This document shows positions 10,800-34,878 of a stretch of 44,875 nt of DNA, piece by piece. A model generated the notes under the pieces. It saw nothing but the letters and a program-made list of their open reading frames with translations, ran no database searches and was not told the DNA's origin. Position 1 is the stretch's first letter; the number at the start of each line of letters is the position of its first letter. Made by a program: the position numbers and the translations under genes. The stretch is from Gemmatimonadota bacterium (lineage in GTDB: Bacteria > Orphanbacterota > Orphanbacteria > Orphanbacterales > Orphanbacteraceae), in contig JABDJQ010000273.1 in the NCBI GenBank assembly GCA_013002425.1, forward strand, positions 1 to 44,875, in the 5' to 3' direction.

Positions 10800-10818
10800 C
10801 CCTGGAGTTTGCTCTGCA

Positions 10819-12744: not shown

Positions 12745-12760
12745 GTGCTATAGTTCGAAC

Positions 12761-15700
12761 ATGAACCGATTGCCGCCTTTTCGCGCCGTGTCCCGTCGCT
12801 CTGCGAATCTGCTGCGAATTTTTTGTCCGGCGTTCTCCGCGCTCTTTCTGTGCGGGGCTGTCGCGACTGCGCACGACCTTCCCTCCGGCTTCACTCTTCT
12901 CGACGACTCTCCTCAAGGCCTCACATTTCGATACGACGCGCCGGAATGGACACGTCGATCCGTCGACCTGGATGGCGGGGGGCGCGCCACGCTGCTTGCG
13001 GCGCCCGGCTGGACTCCGGGCGAGGACGAAGGTCGGCCTGCGTTTCCCGCCGCGTCGATTCCGATTGCCCTGCCGCCGGGCGGAACGGTGCGTGTCGAAA
13101 TCGTGTCGGAACGGGTGCGCTCTCCCGGTTCGTACACGGCGCCGTTCGGAAGCGGGCGGCCTCACGCGCCGTATAATGAGAAAGGCGCCGCCGGTCAGCG
13201 CCCGTGGGCGCGTGTTGCGAAGCCGGGGCACGTCCGCGATCAGCGTGTCGCTTCGCTCGTAATCGAACCGGTCCGCTTCGTGTCCGACACCGGCGCGAAG
13301 CCCGGCACGCAACGCCGGGTCGAAGAACTGGAACGCGCGACGATTCGAGTGACGTTCGAGGGCGGCGGGGAGAAACCGCCGGCAACATCGGGCGATCCGC
13401 TGCACGCAGAGTCGCACGAGCGGCGCAATTCGGCTTTATCGAATCGAGAGGCGCTCTACCGCGCGCTGACCGTGAACCATGAAACCGGCCGCGCGTGGCG
13501 GGCGGAGGCGTCCGGTCGACGCGGCGGCGCGGGTGCCGGCGCAAACGTTGCGAACGTCGCGCGCGCCCGCGCGCTGCGTGACGGCGACTCGTTTTCGTCG
13601 AGTCCGGACTGGTTGAAGCTCACCGTGTCCGAGCGCGGCATGACGCGCGTGACGTATCAGGACTTTCTCGATGCGGGGCTTCTGAACCCGCGCAATGCGG
13701 TGGGCGATCCGCGCACTCTTCGCATGTACACGGGCTCCGCGCGTGAACTTCCCGAGTCGATCGCCGTGCCGCGCCCGGACTGGATGGACCAGACCGCGAT
13801 TCTCGTGGCGGGCGGTGACGACGGCACGTTCGACCCGGGCGACGCCGTCGAGTTTTACGCGCTCCCGCCTGACGACTTTGCGGACTACTTCGATCCCGCC
13901 GCGCCCGACCCGGACGAGTGGGTGTTTCATCGCTACGCGGACGACGGCGTCTACTGGCTCACCTGGGGGGGCGAATTCGAGGAGCCCGCGGAACGAATGG
14001 TGAGCGTAAATCCGGCGGGCGCCGGGAGAGGGTCGGGCGGGAACGACACGCGCGGGCAGGAAGCCGCTGCCGCCGCGCACACGTTTCGCGCCCGCGCGCA
14101 CTATGAGGAGAACCGCTCCTTTCATGACGAGACACGGTTCGGAACGGACCTCTACTTCTACGACCTGCTCACGAGATCCCGCCCCGACAAGACGTATCGT
14201 CTCGCGGAGCTGACGCACGCGGACACCGCCTCGCCCGGGTTGCTTCGCGTTCACGTGATCCATGCCGTGAACGAAAGAACGGGCGACAACGGGGGCAGCC
14301 AGGAAGTTCGTTACACGATGAACGAGGGCGAACCGGCTCTCGCACAATGGAACAGCGACGCGATCGAAGAGGGGGCGATCGTGTCTCCGATCCTGCTCGA
14401 CTCCTCCGTGACGGTCGTGAACGGCCCGAACCGCGTGCGTCTCGAGGCGCTCCGGCGGGCGGACCTCTGGCTCGACTGGATCGAGATCTTCTACGATCGT
14501 TTCTTCGAGGCCGACAGCGGGTCGCTCGCGTTCACTCTCGAAGCGGGAAGCCACGCCCTTTCGCTCGGAGGGCTCTCTGAGAACGCGCGGGTCTTCGACG
14601 TGACGAACAGGCTCGCGCCACGCGAATGGACGGGCGCGGCGCACACGGAGGGACGGCTCGGGTTCACGGCAGATGTCTCCGCCCGAACACACGCCATCGC
14701 TCTCGATCAGGGCGCGTGGCCGGCTCCGGCTGCGATCGAGCTCACGCGCCCCGAAGACCTGCGCGCCGAAAGAGAAGGCGCGGAGTATGTCACGATCGCG
14801 GGCGAATTCTTCTTCGAAGAAGTCGAAACGCTCTTGCGCCATCGCGGTCTCGCTTACTCGACGCTGGTCGCGCGGGTATCCGATATCTTCGACGTCTACT
14901 CCTTCGGATTGCGCGACCCCGTCGCGATTCGTGACTTTCTCGCGAGCGCGTACGCTTCGTGGGACACACGCCCGCTCTTCGTGCTGCTCGCGGGAGACGC
15001 GACGAGTGACATCGCGGACAGACTCACCGGTGTGAGTAATCGCAACGATCTCCCGTCGTTTCCCGAACTCGACAGGCGCGGCCGGGAGGACTTCACGTTT
15101 CGAACCGATGACTTCTACTCCCTCGTCCACCCCGACACGATAGACGACGCGCTTCCCGATCTCGCGATCGGCCGGCTGCCCGCCCGGAACGAAGCGGAGC
15201 TTTCCACGATGCAGAAGAAGATCGTGGCTTACGATATCGCGCCGCCGTTCGGCGCCTGGAAGAACGAAACGCTCGTGCTCGCCGACGACCATCTGAAGGG
15301 ATCGTCCACCGAGGGAGACTGCGCGTTTCAGGGGGCGCACACGGAAGACAGCGAGAAGATCGCGCGCCGCCTTCCCGGATCGTTCGTGAAGCCGCGGATC
15401 TACCTGACGGAGTACGAGATCGGGAACAACGGCGAAAAACCGGAGGCGACGGCGGATCTGCTCGAACGCATGAACGACGGATTTCTCGTGAGCAGCTATA
15501 TCGGAAACGGCGGCTTCGACAGGATGACGGACGAGAATCTGCTTTCGCTCGGGGCGCTGCCGGCCGACGGGTTCGCCAACGAGGGCAGGGAATACCTGTT
15601 CACCGCCTGGACCTGTGATGTCGGTAGCTTCGATCTGCTGAGCGGAGAGTCGCTGAGCGAGCGGTTGATCGCGATGGAAGCGGGGGGCGCTCTTGCGGCG

Positions 15701-17035
15701 TATGCCGCCAACGCCTGCACGTTCGGCAACCTGTCGAGCGCTCTCGCTTTCGATTTCTTCGGCGCGCTCTTTCCCGCGCCGCACCAGACCATTGCCCTCG
15801 GCCTGGCGGGCATGATCGCGAAGGCGAACGCGAGCCATTCGCAGAGCTTTCTGCTGAACGCGCGCAAGTATCATCTGCTCGGCGATCCGGCGATGGAACT
15901 CGCGATTCCGCGTCTCGCGATCGATCTCGGCGACACGCTCGCTTTCGAGGCCGGCACGGTCTCGTCGCTGGCGGGAGCGATCGTTGATGAATCGGGTGAA
16001 GTCGTCTCTTCGTTCAGCGGGGAAGCGCGCGTGACCGTTCACGAAGTGTCGGACACGTCGGGCTTTCGTTATATCGACTCGCTCTGCTCCCCGTCTCCCT
16101 GGCCGGAGCGCAGCGTCGAGTACACGCTCACCGGCGAAGCCGTCTACGCCGCCACGCTTCCCGTCGTGAACGGGCGTTTCGCGACCGAGTTCGTCGCGCC
16201 GCTCGCCGCGCGGACCGGCTCGCTCGCCCGCGTTTCGGCCTACGCATCTTCGCCCGCGTTGCAGGTCGACGCGTCGGGCGGCACCGACTCGGCCGCGATC
16301 ACGCCCGCGCCGGACACGTTCCCGTACGACGATTCGGATCCGCCGCGCGTCACGCTCGCATTCGCAAGCGCCGGTGGTTCGGATCCGGCGCCGATCACGC
16401 TCACGACACCGATCGAAATCACGGTGCGCGACACGAGCGGCATCGACGTTCTGCAGTCAGACCCGTTTTATCAGATGCACGCGCGCGTCGACGGCGGCGA
16501 CCCGATTCCTCTGCTGCCGTTCTTCGCCGTCGATCCCGCGAGCTTCCGCACGGGGCGCGCCCGATTCACGCTGGCCGAGCTCGCCGCTCCGGCAACCCTC
16601 CCGCTCGGCGAGCACGAACTCGCGTTCGTATTCGCGGACGCGCGCGGGAACCGCGGCGAAACGATCCGGCGCGTGCGCGTCGTCTCCGATGAAGGGACGT
16701 TCGGCTTCATGCAGGACATCCTGAGCTATCCGAACCCGTTCGATCCGGAGCGCGAAGAGTCTGTTTTCTATACGGATTTCGGTTCGATCGGCGAGTTGAC
16801 GATCGAGATCTTCACGGTGAACGGGCGGAGAGTGCGCGTGTTTCGCGAATGCATCGCGGCGGGCGCGGAGAAGCTGAACTGCGCGTGGGACGGGCGGGAT
16901 GCGGACGGCGATCTCGTGGCGAACGGCGTGTATGTCGTGCGCGCCGCCGCCGTTTCGGCCGACGGCAGCGAACGCGACGAATCCCTCGGGAGAATAGTCG
17001 TATTGCGCCAGGGGGATCGCCGCATTCGCCGGTAG
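12761..17035 (+). CDS. peptidase C25 (gingipain/PorU-like) family protein with FlgD-Ig/T9SS-type C-terminal domain
   Basis: 1424-aa ORF with a signal peptide. The core aligns to gingipain R (NDGFLVSSYIGNGGFDRM ~ NQGISLINYTGHGSETAW; LFTAWTCDVGSFD ~ FIFDVACVNGDF; HLLGDPAMEL ~ TVFGDPSLLV). C-terminal motif: YPNPFDP...WDGRDADGDLVANGVYVVR...RIVVLR. Confidence 0.88.
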   Translation: MNRLPPFRAVSRRSANLLRIFCPAFSALFLCGAVATAHDLPSGFTLLDDSPQGLTFRYDAPEWTRRSVDLDGGGRATLLAAPGWTPGEDEGRPAFPAASIPIALPPGGTVRVEIVSERVRSPGSYTAPFGSGRPHAPYNEKGAAGQRPWARVAKPGHVRDQRVASLVIEPVRFVSDTGAKPGTQRRVEELERATIRVTFEGGGEKPPATSGDPLHAESHERRNSALSNREALYRALTVNHETGRAWRAEASGRRGGAGAGANVANVARARALRDGDSFSSSPDWLKLTVSERGMTRVTYQDFLDAGLLNPRNAVGDPRTLRMYTGSARELPESIAVPRPDWMDQTAILVAGGDDGTFDPGDAVEFYALPPDDFADYFDPAAPDPDEWVFHRYADDGVYWLTWGGEFEEPAERMVSVNPAGAGRGSGGNDTRGQEAAAAAHTFRARAHYEENRSFHDETRFGTDLYFYDLLTRSRPDKTYRLAELTHADTASPGLLRVHVIHAVNERTGDNGGSQEVRYTMNEGEPALAQWNSDAIEEGAIVSPILLDSSVTVVNGPNRVRLEALRRADLWLDWIEIFYDRFFEADSGSLAFTLEAGSHALSLGGLSENARVFDVTNRLAPREWTGAAHTEGRLGFTADVSARTHAIALDQGAWPAPAAIELTRPEDLRAEREGAEYVTIAGEFFFEEVETLLRHRGLAYSTLVARVSDIFDVYSFGLRDPVAIRDFLASAYASWDTRPLFVLLAGDATSDIADRLTGVSNRNDLPSFPELDRRGREDFTFRTDDFYSLVHPDTIDDALPDLAIGRLPARNEAELSTMQKKIVAYDIAPPFGAWKNETLVLADDHLKGSSTEGDCAFQGAHTEDSEKIARRLPGSFVKPRIYLTEYEIGNNGEKPEATADLLERMNDGFLVSSYIGNGGFDRMTDENLLSLGALPADGFANEGREYLFTAWTCDVGSFDLLSGESLSERLIAMEAGGALAAYAANACTFGNLSSALAFDFFGALFPAPHQTIALGLAGMIAKANASHSQSFLLNARKYHLLGDPAMELAIPRLAIDLGDTLAFEAGTVSSLAGAIVDESGEVVSSFSGEARVTVHEVSDTSGFRYIDSLCSPSPWPERSVEYTLTGEAVYAATLPVVNGRFATEFVAPLAARTGSLARVSAYASSPALQVDASGGTDSAAITPAPDTFPYDDSDPPRVTLAFASAGGSDPAPITLTTPIEITVRDTSGIDVLQSDPFYQMHARVDGGDPIPLLPFFAVDPASFRTGRARFTLAELAAPATLPLGEHELAFVFADARGNRGETIRRVRVVSDEGTFGFMQDILSYPNPFDPEREESVFYTDFGSIGELTIEIFTVNGRRVRVFRECIAAGAEKLNCAWDGRDADGDLVANGVYVVRAAAVSADGSERDESLGRIVVLRQGDRRIRR

Positions 17036-24601: not shown

Positions 24602-25867
24602 CTATGATTTCGACGCTTCTGATGCACGCAGGGGAATCTGTCTGAAGTCGCCCCCCGTGGGATCCTGGAACACGCGAAGGCCGAATTCGGGAATCACCGC
24701 GAGAATGTGATCGAAGATGTCGGCCTGAATCTGTTCGTAGTCGGCCCACGCCTGCACTTTGGAGAAGACGTAGATCTCGATCGGAATCCCCTGCGGCCCC
24801 GGAGCAAGCTGACGAACCAGAAACGTCATCTCGGGATTCACGAGCGGGTGCTTCCTGAGGTATTGCTGCAGATACGCGCGGAACGTACCGATGTTCGTCA
24901 GGCGCCGGCCGTTCACGAGCACGGCGAGATCCACTTTGATTTCGTCGTTGTACTTCTGCACTTCCGCGACTTTCGTTTCGATGTATTTCGTCAGAAACGC
25001 GAACTTTCGAAACCGGTCCACGTCCTCCGTCGTCAGAAACCGAACGGAGGTCATGTCGATGTTGATGGCGCGCTTGATCCTTCTCCCGCCCGACTCCTCC
25101 ATCCCCTTCCAGTTTCGGAACGCGTCGCTCACGAGGGCGTAAGTGGGGATCGTCGAGATCGTCTTGTCCCAGTTCTGGACCTTGACGGCCGTGAGCGTGG
25201 CGTCGGTGACCGTGCCGTCGGCGCCGTACTTCGGCATTTCGATCCAGTCGCCCACCTTTACCATGTCGTTCGCCGAAAGCTGAATGCTCGCGACGAAACC
25301 GAGAATCGTGTCTTTGAAAACGAGCAGGATCACGGCGGTCAGCGCGCCCATCCCGCTCAGGAAGACGAACGGAGAGCGGTTCATCAGAACGGCAAGCGCG
25401 AGAACGCCGAGGACGAAGAACGTCACGATCTTGGCGATCTGCACGTAGCCGCGAATCGGGCGGCTGCGTCCGGCTTCGGAACGCGTGTAGATGGCGTGGG
25501 CCGAGTCGAGGAGCCCCGAGATAACCCGGATCAGCACGAGGATCATATAAGCGACCGCAAGACGCTCGACTACCGTGACGACGTTTGCATGCTGCGCGAA
25601 TGCGACCGGCGTCGTGAAATACAGAACGAATGCCGGGGCGAGTTCGGCCAGCCGGGCGAACACCTGGTTCTCCAGAATCACGTCGTCCCATTCGACCTGG
25701 CTTCTCGCAACGACGCGCTTCAGAACCCGAAGTACGACTCGCTTCGCCACGAACCACGATATCCAGGCGAGCACCAGAATGGCGAAAGCGATGATCACAT
25801 ATGCAGCGAGCTCCGCCGTGCCGTCCTGCATGCCGCGGCCCGTCATCCAATCGCGAATCCATTCCAT
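24602..25867 (-). CDS. mechanosensitive ion channel, MscS family (YbdG/MscM-like)
   Basis: N-terminal TM helices, then ...SANDMVKVGDWIEMPKYGADGTVTDATLTAVKVQNWDKTISTIPTYALVSDAFRNW... is typical of the MscS beta-domain. About 420 aa, like YbdG. AGGA SD 6 nt upstream. Confidence 0.88.
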   Translation of the reverse strand: MEWIRDWMTGRGMQDGTAELAAYVIIAFAILVLAWISWFVAKRVVLRVLKRVVARSQVEWDDVILENQVFARLAELAPAFVLYFTTPVAFAQHANVVTVVERLAVAYMILVLIRVISGLLDSAHAIYTRSEAGRSRPIRGYVQIAKIVTFFVLGVLALAVLMNRSPFVFLSGMGALTAVILLVFKDTILGFVASIQLSANDMVKVGDWIEMPKYGADGTVTDATLTAVKVQNWDKTISTIPTYALVSDAFRNWKGMEESGGRRIKRAINIDMTSVRFLTTEDVDRFRKFAFLTKYIETKVAEVQKYNDEIKVDLAVLVNGRRLTNIGTFRAYLQQYLRKHPLVNPEMTFLVRQLAPGPQGIPIEIYVFSKVQAWADYEQIQADIFDHILAVIPEFGLRVFQDPTGGDFRQIPLRASEASKS

Positions 25868-25939: not shown

Positions 25940-27559
25940 TTAAGGGCGGATCCCCCTGCGCCGGTACGTTCGCAGGATCCATGCGCGCCGGAGCCGGCGC
26001 ACGAGTCGCGCGTGCGGAGGGTCGTGCCCGCCCGGTCCCGGCCCGAGCCAGGGACGAAGCGCGGCTGCGTGCTTCGTGTAGATGTAGCGGTCTCGTTCGG
26101 ACGAGGGATCGTCATGCATCGCGCCGCGCAGCATGGAACCCGGTCGTACACGATATTCGAAGAGCACGTCGGGCAGATGGTGAAACTTCCAGCCCTTGAT
26201 CATTGCGTGGATCCAGAATTCCCAGTCCTCGAGAGCGTCCAGATTCGTGTCGTAGCCGTTGCAGTCGTTCCAGACTTCCCGTCTGAACAGCGCGCACGCG
26301 TCGACGCGATTGCAGTAGCACATGTGGGGAAAGCGGGGTGAGGGCGGAAAGACGAGGTGGTTGCGTCCCCCGAACACGCGCCGGCTGGAGTACACGACGC
26401 CGGTTGCGGGCGTTCGGTCCAGCACGGCCGTCCCCTGCTGCACGTACCCGGGGAGCAGCCGGTTGTCGGCGTCGAGCGGAAGGATGTATCGGCCGGCGGC
26501 GGCTTCGATGCCGACGTTCCGCGCGCCGGCGACGCCCCCGTTCTCCTTGTCGATGACGTGGTAGCCCAGGCTCTTCAGCGCTGCCATCACGGCGAGCGTG
26601 CGCGGCTCGGTCGACCCGTCGTTCACGATGATGAGCTCGGTGGTTTCCGCCGGGACGCTTCGCTCCACGCTGGCGACGGCCTCGAGCAGAAGCTCGCCGT
26701 GATTGAAGCAGGGAATGATGACCGACGTACTCACGCTGCCCGTGCGTTCTGGGCGCCGCAGCAACTGCAAAGCCGGGGGTTCCCCCGCGTTCCAGAACGG
26801 CGCCGACGAGAGATCGGCGCGGTCGTCGAGCTCTTTCAGCAGTTGAATCGATGCGGGTGAGGCGGCGGCGAGCAGCGTGACCAGCGGGTCGATCCTCGCG
26901 TCGGTCGAGACGAAACGTTCGCGGTCGTAAATGCGGGCGAACGCGCGCTGCCTGATATCGACGTCGAAGCGTTCGTGCATGAGTTCACGAAACCCATCGG
27001 AGCGATGCATCATGGCGTTTGCACTGACGAGAAGGCAGCGATCCGGGTTCGCCCTCGCGAAAGCGACAATGCGTTCATTATAGAAGCGCCAGATCCTGTG
27101 CGCGTACCCCGCGTTCCGGAGAAAGACAGAGGAGCCGAGCCGCTGCATCGAATCGGCGACTTCCCACGGGAATCTGTATACGAGCAGAAAGCGGGAGCCG
27201 GGGATGATCTCTTTCCAGAAATCGAGAAACAGCGTAGTGCGCGGATCCTTCCATCCCCAGTGGCCGCCCGGCGTGCGCGTATGAGCTCGGGCGAACGCCT
27301 GATTCTTGAACGGATCGGCGCGCGTCACGTCGAACGCTTCGTCTTCCGTCCAGCCCCAGTCGAGCCAGCCGGGCTTGTCCGCGGGCACGCAGTTCTTCAG
27401 GAGCATGCGATGGAACTCGACGAAGCCGACGTCTTCCTGGTGATCGCCCTGGCGGCTGCTCGGGCCCATGGCAACGCCACCGCTTCGCAGCAGTTTCGCC
27501 ACGAGTGTGGTTCCGGACCGGTGCATGCCGGCTACGATGATCGGAGGCGACTGCGCCAT
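25940..27559 (-). CDS. bifunctional sulfotransferase (N-terminal) / family-2 glycosyltransferase (C-terminal) fusion
   Basis: N-terminal PIIVAGMHRSGTTLVAKLL is a PAPS 5'-PSB loop. C-terminal VSVIIPCFNHGELLLEAVASV...ELIIVNDGSTEPRT...GARNVGIEAA.GRYILPLDADNRL is GT2 with DxD. Start ATG 27559 (MAQSPP) lies 13 nt after the upstream stop. The track start 27628 would overlap by 56 nt. Confidence 0.85.
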   Translation of the reverse strand: MAQSPPIIVAGMHRSGTTLVAKLLRSGGVAMGPSSRQGDHQEDVGFVEFHRMLLKNCVPADKPGWLDWGWTEDEAFDVTRADPFKNQAFARAHTRTPGGHWGWKDPRTTLFLDFWKEIIPGSRFLLVYRFPWEVADSMQRLGSSVFLRNAGYAHRIWRFYNERIVAFARANPDRCLLVSANAMMHRSDGFRELMHERFDVDIRQRAFARIYDRERFVSTDARIDPLVTLLAAASPASIQLLKELDDRADLSSAPFWNAGEPPALQLLRRPERTGSVSTSVIIPCFNHGELLLEAVASVERSVPAETTELIIVNDGSTEPRTLAVMAALKSLGYHVIDKENGGVAGARNVGIEAAAGRYILPLDADNRLLPGYVQQGTAVLDRTPATGVVYSSRRVFGGRNHLVFPPSPRFPHMCYCNRVDACALFRREVWNDCNGYDTNLDALEDWEFWIHAMIKGWKFHHLPDVLFEYRVRPGSMLRGAMHDDPSSERDRYIYTKHAAALRPWLGPGPGGHDPPHARLVRRLRRAWILRTYRRRGIRP

Positions 27560-27572
27560 CGGAGAGAGCCTT

Positions 27573-29072
27573 TCAGTTCGGGGCGGGGCGCCGGATGCGT
27601 CCGGCCAGGCCGAAGAAGAACTTCGCACGTTCGCGCCCGCCCGGCAACCCGATCCAGATCAGAAGATACACGAACAGAAAGAGAGCCGCGTGAACCGCGA
27701 CGGCGAGAATCGTGTTGTCGATCGTGCGCATTGCGAGAAAGACGCGCACGGCTGCCGCCGCGGCAATCGAGCCGGTGACGGGCGCGAAGAACGATTTCAC
27801 GAGATCCATCGTACGGATCGGAGAGCCGTGAAAGCAGTAGAGCGCGCCCGGTACGGCGAGCAGAATCGCAACGGAAGACCATGCGGCCGCGATACCGTTC
27901 ACGCCCCATCTCATCCCGACCACGAAAGCCGTGATCGTGACGATCATCTCGAAAACCGACCACCGGAACTGCCGGTCGGCGCGCCCGAGAGAAATGTAGC
28001 ACCACTGGAAACCGGCGTGCACGACCGCGGCGAACGCGACCGGCGCCAGCAGCCGGAAGATCGGAATCGCGGGAAGCCACTGGTCGCCCAGAATCAGCAG
28101 CACGACCGAGCGCGTATCGGCGAACAGAAACGCGGCCAGCGGGAGCGCAATGGAAGCGAGGATCTCCTGGCCCTTGCCGAACCAGGCGCGAAACCGCTCC
28201 GGTTCGGATCGCAGCCTGCTCAACACCGGAACGGCCACTCGCGATACGGGGCCGGAAATCAGGTGCGCCGGCGCGTAGAGCCAGCCTCGCGCGCGGCCGT
28301 AAAAGCCGAGGATCTCGGCGCCGAAAGCGCGCCCCACGAGAAGCCTGTCGACGTGACGCGCCGTGTAGCGCACGAACTGCGAGAGCGTGAGATAGCCGCC
28401 GAACGCGAGCAGCGACCGGACGCGGCCGAAATGAATCGTGCGATCCGGTCTCCAGTCGCACAGGATCCAGAGAAGGCTGATGCGTGTCAGTTCGGTCCCG
28501 AAGCGCATGGCGACGAGGGCCCAGTAGCCGTGACCGCGCAGCGCGAGGACGATCCCCGTCACGACCCCGACCGCGAGCGACCCGACTTCCGCGAACGAAA
28601 GGGCGCCGAATCGCATGCGCCTGCGAAGCAACCCTTCGTGCTGCGTGCCGAACGATTCGACGAGGCCGAGAACGCCGAGCGCGATTCCGATCGCGACGAG
28701 CCGGGGCTCTCGAAAGAACGCCGCGATCGCGGGCGAAACGAGGATGACCGCGACTGCGAGAAGCGCGCCCGTAATGACGTTGACCCAGAAGAGCGTGCTG
28801 ACCTGTCCCTGATCGATCTCTTCGCTCTGTACCGTTGCGGTCGCGAGGCCGAGGTCGCGCAGGATTCCCAGGAATCCGGTGGTCGCGGTCACCATGGCCA
28901 CCATGCCGAAGTCGTGCGGCGCGAGAATGCGCGCGAGCACGATCGTCGAAACCACGGTCAGCAGAACGCGCGTGCCCTGGGCGCCGAGCGCCACCGTGCC
29001 GCCGCGCACGGAGCGGCCGATCAGGTCGTCCTGCAGATCCAGCGTCCGAAAATGGCGATCGCGATCTTTCAA
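27573..29072 (-). CDS. Wzx-like polysaccharide/oligosaccharide flippase (MOP superfamily)
   Basis: About 12 predicted hydrophobic helices. N-terminal motif: RSVRGGTVALGAQGTRVLLTVVSTIVLARILAPHDFGMVAMV...LGLATATVQ. TTG start overlaps the upstream stop (TTGA). Confidence 0.82.
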   Translation of the reverse strand: MKDRDRHFRTLDLQDDLIGRSVRGGTVALGAQGTRVLLTVVSTIVLARILAPHDFGMVAMVTATTGFLGILRDLGLATATVQSEEIDQGQVSTLFWVNVITGALLAVAVILVSPAIAAFFREPRLVAIGIALGVLGLVESFGTQHEGLLRRRMRFGALSFAEVGSLAVGVVTGIVLALRGHGYWALVAMRFGTELTRISLLWILCDWRPDRTIHFGRVRSLLAFGGYLTLSQFVRYTARHVDRLLVGRAFGAEILGFYGRARGWLYAPAHLISGPVSRVAVPVLSRLRSEPERFRAWFGKGQEILASIALPLAAFLFADTRSVVLLILGDQWLPAIPIFRLLAPVAFAAVVHAGFQWCYISLGRADRQFRWSVFEMIVTITAFVVGMRWGVNGIAAAWSSVAILLAVPGALYCFHGSPIRTMDLVKSFFAPVTGSIAAAAAVRVFLAMRTIDNTILAVAVHAALFLFVYLLIWIGLPGGRERAKFFFGLAGRIRRPAPN

Positions 29073-30109
29073 TCCGGCCGCCCCGGCCGCTCGAGGGCTC
29101 GCACGCGATCGCAGAGCGCGGGGTAACGGTCGCCGAGCGCTGCCCGCATCAGCGAAAACCGGGTGTCGACTTCCGCCGAGCCCGTAGGCACCGCCTCCTC
29201 GGCGCGCTTACCCCTGCGAAGCGACTGCATCCACGCGGAAACCTGCATGACGACCCGTTTCTTGCGCGCGTAGACGCCTGCCTGGCGCCTTCCTTCGACC
29301 GTGAGCCGCCGCTTCACGTTCGTCACGAGATTGATCGCGGCCGAGCGCTCTCCACGCATGAGGAGAGCCGCCGTTCGTTTCCATTTCCGTGTCGATCCCC
29401 GCGGTGTGATATCGGCGGTATGACTGAGCCCGCCGAGATGATGCAGTTGAGCGCAGTCGCGGTTCACGATTGCGTTCCCCTGTCGCACGAGCTCGAGATG
29501 CGCGACGCGCGCCGTGCCGTATCGCGTGAAACGCCAGCCGCGTGCGGCGAATGCGTCGCGCGCTCCCCCGTCGAGCGAACGTGACATGCGATTCCGAAAG
29601 CCCGCGCCGATCGTTTTCAGTGCGGCCTGAAGCGCGCCGCGATCATAGATCGCGCAGCCCGTGCCTCCGACAGCCGTTCCATCCGCAAGAGTTCGATACG
29701 GGCCGCCGAGGAACGGTTGCGACGCGCCGCAGATCGCTTCGCGGTCTTCGATCCAGACCGGCCAGCCGGTGCAGACCGCGCCGCAGGCCGGGGGGCGGTC
29801 TTCGAGTTCTGTCAGAAAATCGCCTGAGGCCAGGATGTCCGAGTCGATGATCGCGAACGTGGACTCGTCGGAGCGCTCGAAGAGGTGATCGAGCGCGATC
29901 CCGTGTCGAACGACGCGATCGAACGGAAGGCGGTAGTACGAGAAGCGCTCCTCCGCATTCGCGGTGAGTCGCATGCGATCGGATTCCTCGGGCGAGCATC
30001 CGTTGTCGACCAGAAGAAAGCGCGCGGAGGGCGACTGCAGCAGCGAAAACGCGAACGGGAGCAGGAGTTCGGTCGTGCCTGCCGTATAGACGACGTGAAA
30101 TGTCGTCAT
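29069..30109 (-). CDS. uncharacterised GT-A-fold-like (putative glycosyl)transferase, paralogue 2
   Basis: Shares with 30106-31182 the blocks LVDNGC, HG(I/L)AL(D/N)HLFER, DSD(I/V)(L/I)ASGDF, RGWRF and LHH(L/V)GG(L/F)S. The DSD acidic motif is in a Rossmann-like context. The family was not identified. Confidence 0.6.
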   Translation of the reverse strand: MTTFHVVYTAGTTELLLPFAFSLLQSPSARFLLVDNGCSPEESDRMRLTANAEERFSYYRLPFDRVVRHGIALDHLFERSDESTFAIIDSDILASGDFLTELEDRPPACGAVCTGWPVWIEDREAICGASQPFLGGPYRTLADGTAVGGTGCAIYDRGALQAALKTIGAGFRNRMSRSLDGGARDAFAARGWRFTRYGTARVAHLELVRQGNAIVNRDCAQLHHLGGLSHTADITPRGSTRKWKRTAALLMRGERSAAINLVTNVKRRLTVEGRRQAGVYARKKRVVMQVSAWMQSLRRGKRAEEAVPTGSAEVDTRFSLMRAALGDRYPALCDRVRALERPGRPD

Positions 30110-31182
30110 TGCGTCTGCTGGTCGCCGGGCGCGCTGCCGGCTTCGCCCGCGGTTACGGGGGAACGGGACCGATCGGGCCGGCAGTGCACCGCAAGGGCCG
30201 CCGTGAGCGCGGCGACCTGCTCGTCGACGGCACGCGACGCGAAGTCCGGAACGGGCGGAATGTCACGGTTGCTGCGTATCGCGTCGGCCGCGTCGCGCAC
30301 GTGTTCGATGACGCGCGCCCTGCGCACGTTCATCTGTCGATGCGCCGGATCGCGCCGGCTGCGCGCGATGAACAGATGGTGCCGCGACGCGTCGATCAGA
30401 CGCTGCACGCGACTTCCTTCGTTCGAACGCATGATGGCGAGCGCCCCGCCCGCAAGCGCGGCGGCTCTGTGACGCTTCCGCGCGAAGTGCTGCGCGCTGA
30501 ATCCGCCCACATGATGCAGGTCGGGGAGTACGCGATGAGCCAGGTCGTGTCCTGCGAGAAGGAGAAGCAGATTGAGAACGCGCGTCGTATCGAAGAGAAC
30601 GAACCGCCAGCCGCGGCCGGCGAACGCGTCGCGCCTCTCGCGCGGTAGTTCGTACGAATCGACGACGCCGAAGCCGCGGGGCGCGGCATCCCAGACCGAT
30701 TCGAGCGCGGCGCGGGGGTAGATCGCGAAGTAGGAATTGCCGGCGCTCGTTCCGTCTTCGAACTCCCGATGGCGCGCGCCGATCCAGGTACTCTCCTTCG
30801 AGATCACCACGTCGTTCTCGGTGGCCCACACCGGCGAACCGCTGAAAACCGACGTCCCGGCGCGCAGCAGAGGATGGAGATCGGCCATGAAGTCGCCGCT
30901 CGCGATCACGTCCGAGTCGGCCATCGCGAAGTGCTCCTCGCGAAAGCGCTCGAACAGGTGGTTCAGCGCGAGGCCGTGTTCGACAGGGGACTCCGCCGCC
31001 AGCGAGTAATACGAAATGCGATCGGATCGCTCCGCCGCTTCCCGGAGCAGGGGGGATTCGTCCGCGCCGCATCCGTTGTCGACCAGGCGGATCGTGACGC
31101 CCGACCCCTTCAGCAGCGATGTCGCAAACGGAATCAGCCGCGCGGGCGTGCGCGGAGTGAAAATGACGTTCAAGGTGATCAT
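30106..31182 (-). CDS. uncharacterised GT-A-fold-like (putative glycosyl)transferase, paralogue 1
   Basis: Tandem paralogue of 29069-30109 (same motif blocks). ATGA overlap with the downstream gene. Confidence 0.6.
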   Translation of the reverse strand: MITLNVIFTPRTPARLIPFATSLLKGSGVTIRLVDNGCGADESPLLREAAERSDRISYYSLAAESPVEHGLALNHLFERFREEHFAMADSDVIASGDFMADLHPLLRAGTSVFSGSPVWATENDVVISKESTWIGARHREFEDGTSAGNSYFAIYPRAALESVWDAAPRGFGVVDSYELPRERRDAFAGRGWRFVLFDTTRVLNLLLLLAGHDLAHRVLPDLHHVGGFSAQHFARKRHRAAALAGGALAIMRSNEGSRVQRLIDASRHHLFIARSRRDPAHRQMNVRRARVIEHVRDAADAIRSNRDIPPVPDFASRAVDEQVAALTAALAVHCRPDRSRSPVTAGEAGSAPGDQQTQ

Positions 31183-31242
31183 GGAAGCTTCAAGATACCA
31201 TGGAAAGTTCGCAATGCCTGACGAGTTTGCTACAGTGGCGCC

Positions 31243-32157
31243 ATGGCACTCCCCGACTTCATCGTAATCGGCGCGGGACGCAGCGGCACCACTTCACTTC
31301 ATCATTGTCTGAAGCAGCATCCGGATATCTTCATGTGCCCGCACAAGTCGCCCAACTACTTCGTGTCTCACGAGAAACAGCCGGCGCGGGAAAACGCCAG
31401 GGTGCGTGCGATGGCGCGACAGTGGGTGTCGGACCGGGGCGAGTACGAGAATCTGTTCGACGGCGCCCGCGGCGAGAAAGTGCGTGGCGAAGTCTCTCCG
31501 GTCTACCTGCAGGCGGAAAGCGCGCCGGCCGCGATTCACGAGGCGTGCCCCGAAGCGAAACTGATCGCGGTCCTTCGCAATCCGATCGATCGTGCGTACG
31601 CGCATTTTCTCGGACGCCGGCGCGACGGGCTCGAGCCGCGCGCGGACTTTCGCGCGGTCGTCGCCACCGAACTGTCCGCGCCGCTTCCGGACGATGTCGC
31701 GTTCGGCAGTTATCTCGGATGCGGGCGTTATCACCACTTCCTGCGCGGCTACTACGAACGCTTTCCGCACGAACGGATACGCGTTTTCCTCTTCGACGAT
31801 CTTCGGCGCGACCTTCCGGGGCTCATGAGGGAGATCTACGCGTTCCTGGACGTTGACGCGGGCTTCTCGCCGGATACGACGTACCGGCACAACCGCACCG
31901 GCGTGATCGAGAACCCGGTCGCGCGTTTCGTGTGGACGCGAACGGCGCCGATTCGCACGCTGCTCCGACCCCTGTGGCCGGAGTTCGTGCGTGACGGCGT
32001 GCATCCGCTCAAGGCCGTTTCGCTCGTAAAGCCGGAGCTCGACCCCGCGATTCGCGCGGACCTTATCGACGTGTTTCGGGAGGACGTGATTCGTCTACAG
32101 AATCTGATCGGGCGGGACCTGGCGCACTGGCTGCAGGACACTCCGGTCGCGCGTTGA
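31243..32157 (+). CDS. sulfotransferase family protein
   Basis: PDFIVIGAGRSGTTSLHHCL (5'-PSB), IAVLRNPIDRAYAHF (3'-PB). Paralogous to 33745-34641. Divergent from 30106-31182 across a 60-bp spacer. Confidence 0.88.
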   Translation: MALPDFIVIGAGRSGTTSLHHCLKQHPDIFMCPHKSPNYFVSHEKQPARENARVRAMARQWVSDRGEYENLFDGARGEKVRGEVSPVYLQAESAPAAIHEACPEAKLIAVLRNPIDRAYAHFLGRRRDGLEPRADFRAVVATELSAPLPDDVAFGSYLGCGRYHHFLRGYYERFPHERIRVFLFDDLRRDLPGLMREIYAFLDVDAGFSPDTTYRHNRTGVIENPVARFVWTRTAPIRTLLRPLWPEFVRDGVHPLKAVSLVKPELDPAIRADLIDVFREDVIRLQNLIGRDLAHWLQDTPVAR

Positions 32158-33748
32158 TCGCGTCGGCTTCGTAAAGAGGCGTTTGCAGGCCCGGGACTTT
32201 GCGGAGCGCGAGAGAAAAGTCGGCGCCCGGTCTCCAGTGGCTCCAGTGCCGGAAGTCGCGCTCCACGCGATCGGCTCCGAACGCGTCCCAGTCGTAATCC
32301 GCCAGCTCTTCCATGAATGTCTTTGCGATCGCGTATGTGAGGGCTACGCCGTTGCACCCGTGATGCGGGCACCCGAACGGAGAGTACGCCTGCTTCGGGA
32401 AGTCTTCTTTCAGATGGCGATCGGGATCGAACGACTCGGGACGGTCGAACAGCGCGGGATCGCGGTGGCTCTCCCAGACGCACTGTCTGATCAGCCATCC
32501 TTTCGGGTAACGAACGCCTTCGAACTCGAAATCGGTGTGCACGGCGCGGTAGAGATATTCGCTCTGCGCGAGTCGAAGGGTCTCCAGGATGACGCGGTTG
32601 GCAATGTCCTGCCGGCGCGAGTCACCCGCCCCGGACCCGCGATCTTCACGAATACGCGCGACCCATTCCTTGTTTTCTCCGAGCATCTGCAGAATCCAGT
32701 GCAGAAGCGAGGAGACGTTCGCCGTGGAGATTTTGAGAATGAACAGCATGTTGTCGATACAGACGTCGTCCGGCATGGAAGAATCGATACGGTGAAGCTC
32801 GGCGAGCGCGTTCGGCGGTTCGTCGGCCGCGGCATCGGATTGCAGCGCGGCGGCGGATTGCAGCGCCCCGGCTTTCGATCGCATGAGACCGCGAAGTTTC
32901 CCGAGCGCCGCCCTGGTCCTGTCGTCCAGCCGCTGGTTCAGGTCCTGCGCGCCGAACTCTCTCGTGAGCGTCGCCAGTTCATCCGCGGCGGCCGTGCCGG
33001 GAACGATTCCGAACAGGGACGCGGCAAGCGCGTCGTGGACGATCGCGTGCACGAAAGGTCCCGGCCGCGGCCCGCGCCCTTCGTTCTCGCCCGCCCGCGC
33101 GGCCATGCACGCAAGCTGCCCGCGCGCGGAGGATCGTGTGATTTTGGTTGCCGTGGATGTCGTGGTCCCGGAGAAGGCCTTGCGAAAGAGCGGGCCGTAT
33201 TTTTCGTATGTCGCATCGTCCATGTAGCGAAGAAAGCCGCCCGCGACTTCGTCGGAAAACGGGAGAGGGCAGGGGCCGATCCGGTCGGCGCGCTCGCGAA
33301 AAAGCCGGTGCCCTCGTTCGATTCCGAGAACGCAGACAACCTTGTGATGAAACTGCGCCATCTTGAAGATCGGTCCGTGGCGCGCGAACTTCTTCGAGTA
33401 GAAGCGCCGGTCGGCCAGCGCTTCGATCGACTCGGCGACCGAAACATTGCCGGGCGGAAGGGGCGCCGTGACCTTCGATCGCGGGCGGTTTCCGATCATG
33501 AGCGCGATGACGAGGATCGCGACAGCCGCGGTCAGGATGTGAAAGCCGGGCGGGAAGTACAGCGCGAGCAGAACCGCTGTCACGGCGAGGGCGATTCCGG
33601 CGGCAAGCAGCGCAAAGCAGGCGCGCGGGAACATCCGCCGGAACGAGCGTGCGCCGAGCAGCTTCGCCCATGGCAGGAAAGCCCAGCCGAGCAGGCACCC
33701 CTCCAGTATGCGGATCGTGATTCCCAGCGTACCGCCCTCCGGACTCAT
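32063..33748 (-). CDS. membrane-anchored cytochrome P450
   Basis: Heme loop FGCPHHGCNG (F-G-x-x-x-H-x-C-x-G), ExxR (ETLRL), PESFDPDRH. The N-terminus has about 3 hydrophobic helices. ATG 33748 overlaps the upstream stop (ATGA). The 3' end overlaps the convergent sulfotransferase gene by 95 nt. Confidence 0.85.
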   Translation of the reverse strand: MSPEGGTLGITIRILEGCLLGWAFLPWAKLLGARSFRRMFPRACFALLAAGIALAVTAVLLALYFPPGFHILTAAVAILVIALMIGNRPRSKVTAPLPPGNVSVAESIEALADRRFYSKKFARHGPIFKMAQFHHKVVCVLGIERGHRLFRERADRIGPCPLPFSDEVAGGFLRYMDDATYEKYGPLFRKAFSGTTTSTATKITRSSARGQLACMAARAGENEGRGPRPGPFVHAIVHDALAASLFGIVPGTAAADELATLTREFGAQDLNQRLDDRTRAALGKLRGLMRSKAGALQSAAALQSDAAADEPPNALAELHRIDSSMPDDVCIDNMLFILKISTANVSSLLHWILQMLGENKEWVARIREDRGSGAGDSRRQDIANRVILETLRLAQSEYLYRAVHTDFEFEGVRYPKGWLIRQCVWESHRDPALFDRPESFDPDRHLKEDFPKQAYSPFGCPHHGCNGVALTYAIAKTFMEELADYDWDAFGADRVERDFRHWSHWRPGADFSLALRKVPGLQTPLYEADAINARPECPAASAPGPARSDSVDESRPPETRR

Positions 33749-34641
33749 GCGAACCAGTGTGAAAGATCGCGGTTCAGCATCCCCTGCAGTTTCTCGATCT
33801 CCGCGCGATAGAGCGAAGCCAGTTCCGCGCGAAGCTCCGCGTCGAGCGGGCGCTCGTCGAGATCGCGCTTCACGGCCGAAGAAACGGGGCCGCGGATCCA
33901 GCCGGGCACGTACGGCTGTGCGCGGGCGCGGAGAAGCGCCGATCGCGTCCATACTTTGCGAAGCAGGGGATTACGAATCACCCCGCCGCTCGCGTTATGG
34001 CGTTCTTTCGTGTCGATCGGGAACGACGCGTCCACGCCGAGGAACGCGAACGTCTCCGCCATCATCCGCGCCGGATCATCCCGCAGGTCTTCGAACAGAT
34101 GAATCTTTATCCTATCACGATTGAATCTCTCGAAGTACGACCCGAGAACATGACTGCAGAACCCGGCGGCGAGGTAGGTTCCGGAGGCATCGTCGCGGAC
34201 CAGGGGCTCCGCTCGTTCTTCGCGCACGATCGCGGCGAAATCGCCTCTCTCTTCGAGGCCGTCTCTGAGACGCGCCACGTATCGCGCGTACACGCGGTCG
34301 ACCGGATTCCGCAGAATCGCGATCAGGCGAGCTTCCGGAATGCGGTCCGCGATCCGCGCCGGAACCGCGGTCGAAGCGAGATAGGCGGGCGAGACTTCGC
34401 CGATCGCGCTCTCGTCGCGCACGCCGTCGAAAAGGGCTTCATACGCGGCCGCGTCGCGCACGAAGAAGTTGCGCGTCACGATCCTCACTCGCGGGTCGTT
34501 CGAAGGGCCCAGATCACGGCAATAGAAGTAGCTCGGTGACTTGACCCGGGGTAGGTACACGCCAGGGTGCTTCCCGAGGTAATGATGCAGCGAGGTGGTG
34601 CCGGATCGTCCGGCGCCGATTACGAGGAAATTCGGTAGCAC
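33745..34641 (-). CDS. sulfotransferase family protein
   Basis: LPNFLVIGAGRSGTTSLHHYL, IAILRNPVDRVYARY. GTG 34641 lies 8 nt after AAGGA and matches the paralogue's N-terminus (MALPDF / VLPNF). The ORF is open to GTG 34707 (alternative start, no SD). Confidence 0.85.
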   Translation of the reverse strand: MLPNFLVIGAGRSGTTSLHHYLGKHPGVYLPRVKSPSYFYCRDLGPSNDPRVRIVTRNFFVRDAAAYEALFDGVRDESAIGEVSPAYLASTAVPARIADRIPEARLIAILRNPVDRVYARYVARLRDGLEERGDFAAIVREERAEPLVRDDASGTYLAAGFCSHVLGSYFERFNRDRIKIHLFEDLRDDPARMMAETFAFLGVDASFPIDTKERHNASGGVIRNPLLRKVWTRSALLRARAQPYVPGWIRGPVSSAVKRDLDERPLDAELRAELASLYRAEIEKLQGMLNRDLSHWFA

Positions 34642-34869
34642 TGCCTGCGTCCTTGCGTGCGGCCGCTTCTTTCGCGGCCCCTTGAGTCTGCGATGCACAA
34701 CTGCCACGAGTATTGCAGATCCGGGCGGTTCGTGACCAACCGAGCCGGAAGATCGACAATCCGCCCCGCAGCGCGTGGTATCCGATCGATCGTATCGGAA
34801 TGACGCCGTTTCCGGTTGGAATATATACGGTAACTAATTGATATACATGGAGTTATAAGGGCGACCGTT

Positions 34870-34878
34870 TGGTATAAT
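34870..34878 (+). promoter_or_regulatory. extended -10 promoter element TGGTATAAT
   Basis: Perfect TGnTATAAT in the AT-richest patch of the window. It would start transcription near 34885, about 250 nt upstream of the rimJ-like start. No good -35. Confidence 0.4.

Follow-up and report, generated by a model that had tools for sequence, protein, structure and literature searches.

The DNA analysed here, referred to below as the window, is a stretch of 44,875 nucleotides from a Gemmatimonadota bacterium (GCA_013002425.1, contig JABDJQ010000273.1, positions 1 to 44,875), a metagenome-assembled genome (MAG) of 3.9 Mb in 830 contigs that is 83% complete and has a Candidatus Eisenbacteria MAG as its nearest relative. 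Its locus at 25940-34707 encodes sulfotransferases (ST) using 3'-phosphoadenosine 5'-phosphosulfate (PAPS), a membrane cytochrome P450, glycosyltransferase (GT)-like proteins and a Wzx-type flippase, and a three-gene core of it, consisting of sulfotransferase, membrane P450 and sulfotransferase, could be defined in soil and water MAGs of six phyla. The eight genes of this locus are real, each being a frame with the coding signature in GC content at third codon positions (GC3 0.74-0.82). The gene set listed in the first-pass annotation of this DNA, namely three PAPS-type ST domains, a Wzx flippase, a fusion with a family 2 glycosyltransferase (GT2), two paralogues and a P450, was confirmed by Pfam and GC3. 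The cluster is flanked by the genes of an MscS channel and of a GNAT acetyltransferase, one at either end (Table 1).

Table 1. Coordinates of the genes and features of the sulfotransferase-P450 locus.
Feature	Position	Strand	Basis or remark
MscS-type mechanosensitive channel, 72 nt downstream of operon	24602..25867	-	PF00924 + PF21082
Sulfotransferase-GT2 fusion, 539 aa	25940..27559	-	PF13469 41.3 bits (N-terminal 260 aa) + PF00535 88.7 bits
Wzx-type MOP flippase, 499 aa, ~9 hydrophobic windows (simple hydropathy scan)	27573..29072	-	PF13440 271 bits
GTlB, GT-A-fold transferase-like protein B, 346 aa	29069..30109	-	Paralogue of GTlA; invariant DSD + HH.GG
GTlA, GT-A-fold transferase-like protein A, 358 aa, first gene of minus-strand operon	30106..31182	-	AlphaFold 2 (AF2) model + Foldseek
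ST1 sulfotransferase, 304 aa, divergent from GT operon, convergent with P450	31243..32157	+	PF13469, PF00685
Membrane-anchored cytochrome P450, 561 aa	32063..33748	-	PF00067 72 bits
ST2 sulfotransferase, 320 aa (~298 aa if internal start)	33745..34707	-	PF13469, PF00685
AT-rich intergenic region between ST2 and divergent GNAT gene	34708..34876	.	Sequence reading

Short overlaps join the genes within each arm of the locus. GTlA and GTlB meet in an ATGA overlap, GTlB and the flippase gene in a TTGA overlap, with the TTG start of the latter lying over the stop of the upstream gene, and ST2 and the P450 gene again in an ATGA overlap. The 4-nt overlaps that had been proposed, and with them the coupling of the P450 to one sulfotransferase, could thus be read directly from the sequence. 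The genes of ST1 and the P450 are convergent and share 95 nt at their 3' ends (32063-32157). The same 95-nt overlap is found in the sister genome (L005, 6290-6384), and it encodes the disordered C-terminal tail of the P450, for which the predicted local distance difference test score (pLDDT) of the AF2 model is below 50 past residue 541. The longest open reading frame (ORF) of the P450, with 629 aa from 33952, was rejected as the gene; the start is ATG 33748, overlapping the ST2 stop. For the fusion gene, ATG 27559, located 13 nt past the Wzx stop, is most likely the start because it matches the 539-aa orthologue in the sister genome (L005), while GTG 27628 is a less likely alternative. The AT-rich region upstream of ST2 is likely the promoter region for ST2 and P450. 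No site was found there in a consensus promoter scan, and the promoter and terminator scan, in which site counts were not above those in shuffled sequence, yielded nothing useful.

The gene association, whose absence from related genomes would have refuted the first-pass annotation by its own account, is conserved there. All eight genes, the MscS gene included, are syntenic in Candidatus Eisenbacteria OFTM309 of the same genus with 77-89% amino-acid identity, and for seven of them the synteny extends, at 57-71%, to a further genus of this family, where the flanking MscS gene was not detected. MscS genes are also located beside P450 loci of Gemmatimonadota (L076, 11389-12630, 52% identity; L062, 14169-15365); this neighbourhood could be a coincidence or a functional link, and it is uncertain whether the MscS gene of the window belongs to the system. 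Since the P450 was present in three of the ten genomes of the phylum examined, the locus is accessory.

A scan with the P450 alignment, covering one genome per prokaryote species, revealed 78 loci, all of them in MAGs. Among these, 26 carry ST1-type and/or ST2-type genes, a few that are cut by contig ends showing one. Defining the triad as an ST gene directly upstream of the P450 gene together with a second ST gene, we obtained 27 loci (the 26 fetched and the window) from six phyla, all of them again MAGs; besides the lineage of the window, these comprise Actinomycetota, Acidobacteriota, Planctomycetota, Gemmatimonadota and Burkholderiales. An ST gene of the same direction lies immediately upstream of the P450 gene in 23 of the 26 ST-linked loci. 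The P450 tree is divided by a split of 97% support into a clade of 35 and a clade of 49 rows, and all 26 ST-linked P450s fall into the smaller one. None of the 49 P450s in the other clade is ST-linked; they are mostly from Gemmatimonadota and often form tandems next to a Wzx gene and to the genes of a xanthine-dehydrogenase-type enzyme. In the sulfotransferase tree, the ST1-type genes form one clade (26 rows, 100/100 support) apart from the ST2-type genes, which means that both paralogues are old and that both have been retained. As judged from gene order and phylogeny, the conserved unit is the sulfotransferase-P450-sulfotransferase triad, not the eight-gene cluster. We infer that the triad is the ancient core, to which the GT pair, the flippase and the sulfotransferase-GT2 protein were joined as modules in this lineage.

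The three ST domains, whose reassignment to another P-loop family the first-pass annotation had named as a refutation, remain sulfotransferases under hidden Markov models, and ST1 and ST2 also match solved structures. ST1 scored 58.4 bits with PF13469 (Sulfotransfer_3) and 48 bits with PF00685 (Sulfotransfer_1), ST2 48 and 35.8 bits, the curated cut-offs being 27 and 22 bits, and all three domains lie above the curated cut-off. ST1 and ST2 are 48% identical to each other, and their 5'-phosphosulfate-binding loop reads GAGRSGTTSL, that of the fusion protein GMHRSGTT. Their first match in the Protein Data Bank (PDB) is 3rnl (E 1e-46 for ST1 and 8.6e-48 for ST2), followed by the heparan-sulfate sulfotransferases 3-OST/NDST. 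A genome devoid of any PAPS pathway would, according to that annotation, also have refuted its reading. The genome encodes an ATP sulfurylase (PF01747 326 bits, C296:1777-2409) and an adenosine 5'-phosphosulfate (APS) kinase (PF01583 161 bits, C296:1-360), and PAPS can therefore be made. The APS kinase gene is split over two contig ends (C296:1-360 and C338:7626-7712), and large genes resembling type I phosphodiesterases/alkaline phosphatases were seen by eye beside and between the sulfate-activation genes.

Two candidate additions to the sulfotransferase set were rejected. An 846-aa sulfotransferase-P450 “fusion” (P0003, locus L007), at first sight a Rosetta-stone link, was treated as a frameshift artefact: the conserved ST C-terminus GRDLTHWLR, followed by its stop codon, sits in another frame just ahead of the junction, and further genes are broken on this contig, which was assembled from long reads at 1x. 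A small conserved protein beside the P450 (cluster 9) turned out to consist of arginine-rich shadow frames of additional sulfotransferase-like genes, which form a very distant branch of the tree and were not counted as a confirmed third sulfotransferase.

The P450 was modelled with a pLDDT of 86.2. Its model displays N-terminal helices (pLDDT >90) at residues 3-32, 41-64 and 66-86 ahead of the catalytic domain, and the hydrophobic stretch covers residues 39-89, so that the helices 41-64 and 66-86 would form a hairpin. Basic residues flank this hairpin on both sides and place the catalytic domain in the cytoplasm, where PAPS is available. In Foldseek, the best match was CYP120A1 (E 2e-17, target-normalised template-modelling (TM) score 0.79), followed by CYP11A/B, CYP204A3, CYP90B1, CYP97C1 and CYP51; those that can be placed among these best matches are known to act on isoprenoid-derived lipids. 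CYP3A4 and CYP2D6 were among the lower-ranked matches.

The signatures of the P450 are E-T-L-R and FGCPHHGCNG, and in 29 homologues the residues F458, G459, H463, C465 and G467 of the Cys loop as well as E389 and R392 of the ExxR motif are invariant. In its I-helix, hand-aligned to the canonical motif (A/G-G-x-D/E-T), the family lacks the acid-alcohol pair and shows D-N-L-L-F-x-L-(K/R)-I-(A/S)-x-x-N-V, with I340 in the place of the acid and A/S341 in that of the threonine. This pair serves O2 activation in classical monooxygenases and is typical of these enzymes, but membership of the P450 superfamily does not require it; CYP120A1 presumably keeps it. Given its absence, the P450 may not be a classical O2-activating hydroxylase. 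Three positions are near-fixed in the ST-linked 35-row clade and variable in the other, namely R/K339 (33/35), N344 (31/35) and N466 (32/35), and the basic residue 339 may bind a substrate that is already sulfated.

Membership of two described P450 groups was considered and rejected. TIGR04515, the P450-derived glycosyltransferase activator, was reached with 26.8 bits against a cut-off of 343, and we take that family to be devoid of the Cys ligand that is invariant here; CYP128 was dismissed on motifs and fold neighbours. A paralogue of the P450 in the same genome, 27-29% identical and likewise provided with an N-terminal hydrophobic region, lies on contig C92 (5355-13277), where inspection by eye suggested a GT4, a DegT-type aminotransferase, a polytopic flippase-like protein, an ATP-grasp enzyme and a second Wzx-like gene as its neighbours.

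The paralogues GTlA and GTlB, 35% identical to each other, had been called GT-A-like, and this assignment was borne out by a predicted structure. No Pfam or NCBIfam model matched either of them over its cut-off: GTlA scored 19.7 and 17.2 bits with the Pfam GT2 models, whose cut-offs are 27 and 23.3 bits, and GTlB had no match. A sequence search of the PDB with GTlA found nothing, the GT-A fold being seen by fold search only. With the AF2 model of GTlA (pLDDT 82.5), Foldseek returned the GT-A glycosyltransferases K4CP (chondroitin polymerase), PcManGT, TarP, SpsA and heparosan synthase at a probability of 1.0, E ~5e-7 and TM 0.35-0.45. In the family alignment D89-S90-D91 is invariant, and this D-S-D together with the H-x-G fits a metal-dependent GT-A enzyme. 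The family is a separate one without a Pfam or NCBIfam model. It was at first considered very rare, a view that we rejected, as 15 matches in a word-indexed search stand against 517 clusters, mostly of ~340 aa, in an exhaustive profile search of 1.8 billion representative proteins. Tandem pairs of its members also occur in other glycan loci beside GT2, GT61 and methyltransferase genes. One distant member with a shorter N-terminus stands alone beside the gene of an NAD-dependent sugar epimerase in a Chromatiales MAG (L089, 10001-10927), and in that locus genes of a PAPS-type sulfotransferase and an arylsulfotransferase are located 8 kb off on either side.

In the fusion protein, the N-terminal PAPS-type ST domain is followed by a GT2 domain with a DAD motif, which matched the structures of PglI-like, chondroitin synthase and TarP chains. 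This architecture is very common, being shared by more than 1400 homologues of full length and 44-50% identity that are annotated only as glycosyltransferase. For the flippase, WzxC and TuaB are the closest NCBIfam models, its score with PRK10459 (232.6 bits) being below the equivalog cut-off of 273. A second Wzx gene, 83% identical in protein to that of the window and without a megablast-level DNA match to the window, is encoded on contig C640 (1472 bases); a duplicate of the present locus was rejected as its origin, leaving a paralogue or a second population in the bin.

Several other loci tie glycosyltransferases to the triad. In a Solirubrobacterales MAG (L091), ST1, two GT-like genes and the FAD, FeS and molybdenum subunits of a xanthine-dehydrogenase-type enzyme are chained by short gene overlaps, and this chain points away from a second group composed of ST2, the P450 and, following the P450, a MocA-like gene. 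The second GT-like gene of the chain is the GTlB orthologue (48% identical) and the first is closest to GTlA, meaning that the pair is old and has retained its order. A GT-like pair stands beside the triad in a second Actinomycetota lineage as well (L009/L015). In another locus (L093), a single chain leads from a sulfotransferase gene through the P450 gene and a further sulfotransferase gene to a weak GT2-like gene and GT4, and GT4 or GT2 genes were found beside the triad in 7-8 loci each. Two diverged proteins, P0220 and P0238, even carry a GT-like domain fused to an ST domain; the latter, with the loop LGMHRSGTS, is of the subtype of the N-terminal domain of the fusion in the window.

The most recurrent companion outside of these families is a molybdenum enzyme of the xanthine-dehydrogenase/aldehyde-oxidase type (FeS and Mo subunits, with or without FAD), which flanks at least 24 of the 78 P450-family loci, both with and without sulfotransferases (among them L014, L021/L091, L022, L027, L031, L033, L036, L039, L048, L052, L055, L056, L061, L062, L066, L068, L071, L072, L074 and L075). 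It could be a redox partner or the next oxidation step. No molybdenum enzyme is encoded near the locus in the window, and the closest copy in the genome is on C447. In five Gemmatimonadota loci (L062, L066, L074, L075 and L076), two to three tandem membrane P450 paralogues flank a Wzx-type flippase and a molybdenum enzyme, and no sulfotransferase or GT was detected there using the proteins of the window; the MOP flippase of these loci may handle an oxidised lipid, not a lipid-linked sugar. In L092 (2214-11527), a 40%-identical P450 (P0026) closes an operon without sulfotransferases that encodes a weak UbiA-like protein, a methyltransferase, a FAAL, a carrier/reductase/kinase protein, a CDP-alcohol phosphatidyltransferase and a PlsC-type acyltransferase, and that looks like an unusual lipid pathway.

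Elsewhere in the window, a row of plus-strand genes (1326-17035) encodes a 3157-aa fn3/Big_5/FlgD_ig protein, a sulfatase (10819-12744) and a 1424-aa C25 peptidase, the first and the last having a C-terminal FlgD_ig domain in common. This row may represent a secreted or surface degradative set; its sulfatase shares the window with the sulfation locus.

Taken together, we tentatively favour, with somewhat less than even confidence, a composite pathway yielding a cell-envelope glycolipid or lipid-linked oligosaccharide that bears several sulfates and has its lipid oxidised by the P450. The P450 in the inner membrane would oxidise a membrane lipid, most likely an isoprenoid-type or a long alkyl chain; GTlA, GTlB and the GT2 domain would attach sugars; ST1, ST2 and the ST domain of the fusion would transfer at least two to three sulfates from PAPS to the sugars and/or the new hydroxyl; and the Wzx-type MOP flippase would bring the anionic product to the membrane's outer face. 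A lipid as the substrate is suggested by the N-terminal membrane helices and by the nearest folds (CYP120A1, CYP11, CYP90B1, CYP97C1 and CYP51), by P0026 closing a lipid-synthesis operon, and by the paralogue of the same genome among what, by eye, are GT4, sugar aminotransferase and flippase-like genes. The link from the triad to glycosylation is drawn from the chains in L091 and L093, the recurrent GT4/GT2 neighbours and the fusions P0220 and P0238. A polymer is disfavoured because neither the scanned ORFs of the window nor the gene tables for the syntenic loci yielded a Wzy, PCP/OPX or priming transferase gene. The first-pass annotation had likewise seen no Wzy, initiating transferase or PAPS-synthesis gene, and none was found among the scanned ORFs. 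It had also suggested that the P450 hydroxylates a lipid or aglycone for subsequent sulfation or glycosylation, and the evidence favours this reading. Of the products it had offered, the sulfoglycolipid (or a lipid-linked oligosaccharide) has become more likely and a Wzy-polymerised exopolysaccharide less so.

A number of observations weigh against this proposal. Most triad loci have neither a flippase nor a GT-like pair, and the link to the Wzx arm is confined to one Eisenbacteria family, apart from Wzx genes at a greater distance in L020 and L022. The window encodes no redox partner for the P450. No squalene-hopene cyclase was found in the 83%-complete genome, in which phytoene/squalene synthase genes are present. 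The matches of ST1 and ST2 to heparan-sulfate sulfotransferases reach only E ~1e-6, and 3rnl, their best match, has no functional name in its PDB record. Furthermore, the genome encodes 4-5 priming transferases (Bac_transf), five Wzy_C proteins and three OPX proteins (Poly_export) on other contigs. Finally, all related loci are from MAGs, and the system is known from genes alone.

The main rival, which we regard as unlikely, is a sulfated Wzx/Wzy-dependent polysaccharide, either exopolysaccharide or O-antigen-like. In that case, an undecaprenyl-diphosphate-linked repeat built by the GT-A enzymes would be sulfated by the three ST domains and flipped by Wzx, Wzy, PCP/OPX and the priming transferase would be supplied from elsewhere in the genome, and the P450 would be a tailoring enzyme or unrelated. 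The Bac_transf, Wzy_C and Poly_export genes on other contigs are in line with this, as are the Wzx-like nature of the flippase (PF13440 271 bits; WzxC and TuaB closest), the resemblance of ST1 and ST2 to heparan-sulfate sulfotransferases, and the documented clusters with Wzx and two sulfotransferases, namely synechan xss (PMC8205485) and Actinoplanes wps-1 (PMC13390465). However, in none of the three syntenic genomes does the cluster contain a Wzy, PCP, OPX or priming transferase gene, the GT domains number just three, and over six phyla the stand-alone sulfotransferases are conserved with the membrane P450, not with Wzx. For the sulfated polysaccharide cluster described in PMC13390465, no P450 is mentioned.

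An alternative that we consider improbable divides the locus into two unrelated neighbours. Much like CYP128-Stf3, the triad alone would produce a sulfated non-glycosylated lipid, e.g., an omega-sulfated isoprenoid quinone or carotenoid; a separate sulfated glycan would come from the GT-GT-Wzx-sulfotransferase-GT2 operon, and their adjacency would be a lineage-specific accident. Indeed, the two arms are divergent or convergent transcription units, the sulfotransferase-GT2 family is very large and widespread without a P450, and most triad loci lack Wzx, the GT-like pair and the sulfotransferase-GT2 gene, with L008 consisting of ST, ST and P450 only. Yet short gene overlaps tie the GT-like pair to ST1 in L091, the pair stands beside the triad in L009/L015 and in Eisenbacteria, the triad of L093 shares its chain with GT4 or GT2 genes, GT-like domains are fused to sulfotransferase domains, and the arrangement has been retained over three genera, down to 57% identity. 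Very unlikely is a conjugative detoxification of exogenous lipophilic compounds, a bacterial analogue of phase I-III xenobiotic metabolism in which the P450 (elsewhere together with the molybdenum hydroxylase) oxidises, ST, GT and methyltransferase conjugate and the MOP transporter expels: neighbours of the xenobiotic type do recur (xanthine-dehydrogenase/aldehyde-oxidase-type enzymes in at least 24 of 78 loci, sulfotransferases, class I methyltransferases and GTs) and CYP3A4 and CYP2D6 appear among the lower-ranked fold matches, but the fixed order of two orthologous sulfotransferases and their coupling to a single P450 suggest a defined biosynthetic sequence, the transporter is of the Wzx and not the MATE type, and the neighbours scanned next to the cluster include no ligand-sensing regulator, only GNAT and, 2.3 kb off, an ECF sigma factor.

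Returning to the sulfated glycolipid, a wider and doubtful proposal is that the triad makes an undescribed class of poly-sulfated membrane (glyco)lipid in uncultured bacteria of at least six phyla, with a P450 that may recognise the sulfate of its substrate and may draw electrons from, or pass its substrate to, the xanthine-dehydrogenase-type neighbour instead of a classical ferredoxin. To our knowledge, sulfated lipids and glycans have rarely been documented in bacteria outside cyanobacteria and mycobacteria. Those that are known shape the charge of the envelope, the matrix of biofilms and how the cells interact with hosts or phages. Both glycan loci rich in sulfotransferases and provided with a flippase and lipid sulfation by a P450 plus a sulfotransferase are already known. 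In the literature searched, we found no description of a cluster combining P450, sulfotransferase and flippase, nor of the triad of two sulfotransferases and a membrane P450, of its ties to the unmodelled GT-A family and the molybdenum hydroxylase, or of the modified active site of the P450. Here, we have defined this core, a P450 subfamily whose active site is unusual and which recurrently has a molybdenum hydroxylase as its neighbour, and a GT-A family of ~500 clusters without Pfam or NCBIfam model that is tied to sulfotransferases by operon coupling and gene fusion. If the product is a sulfated glycolipid, this would assign a function to many genes now labelled “hypothetical” or “glycosyltransferase”. 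As the system comprises only three to eight genes, a direct test by heterologous expression is feasible.

Among known proteins, 3rnl is ~40% identical to both ST1 and ST2 over the full length and belongs to the same subfamily, its N-terminal loop GAAKCGTSSL aligning with the GAGRSGTTSL of the window sulfotransferases; its PDB record says just “Sulfotransferase”, meaning that the subfamily is named and the acceptor is not. Among solved structures, CYP120A1 of Synechocystis (PDB 2ve3, retinoic-acid-binding) comes closest to the P450 both in sequence (E 6e-16) and in fold. It is a eukaryote-like bacterial P450 with an isoprenoid-derived substrate and shows 20-21% identity to that of the window, whose N-terminal 86 residues, forming the helices of the model, have no counterpart in its aligned part. 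We know of no sulfotransferase partner for CYP120A1.

With synechan xss (Synechocystis sp. PCC 6803, PMC8205485), wps-1 (PMC13390465) and the capsule locus of Vibrio sp. KMM 8419 (PMC11641403), the window shares PF13469/PF00685 sulfotransferases accompanied by GTs and Wzx, with PAPS coming from elsewhere in the genome. Unlike the window with its three GT domains, xss has Wzy, PCP, a priming glycosyltransferase and eight GTs (PMC8205485), the first three of which are missing here. The gene list given for xss (PMC8205485) includes no P450, and the term “P450” is absent from PMC13390465.

In the CYP128A1-Stf3 operon of M. tuberculosis, according to the account of Sogi et al. (2016) given in PMC7404182, menaquinone-9 is hydroxylated and then sulfated to sulfomenaquinone (S881). 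As there, a P450 gene adjoins a PAPS-type sulfotransferase gene in the window, ST2 and P450 being joined by ATGA. The logic outlined in that account, in which the hydroxyl that the P450 introduces into a membrane isoprenoid lipid is then sulfated by the sulfotransferase to give an anionic envelope lipid, applies to the window as a functional analogy only. CYP128 has the signatures E-T-W-R and F-G-S-G-I-H-L-C-P-G (PMC7404182), whereas the window P450 shows E-T-L-R and P-F-G-x-x-x-H-x-C-N-G; the former was modelled on soluble Vdh/CYP107-type enzymes (PMC7404182), and the latter folds nearest to CYP120A1, CYP11 and CYP51. In contrast to CYP128A1-Stf3, the locus of the window displays a predicted membrane hairpin in its P450, no acid-alcohol pair, two (here three) sulfotransferases, GT-A enzymes and a flippase. 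If its product is a sulfated glycolipid, the “hydroxylate then sulfate” logic of CYP128-Stf3 would extend far beyond mycobacteria.

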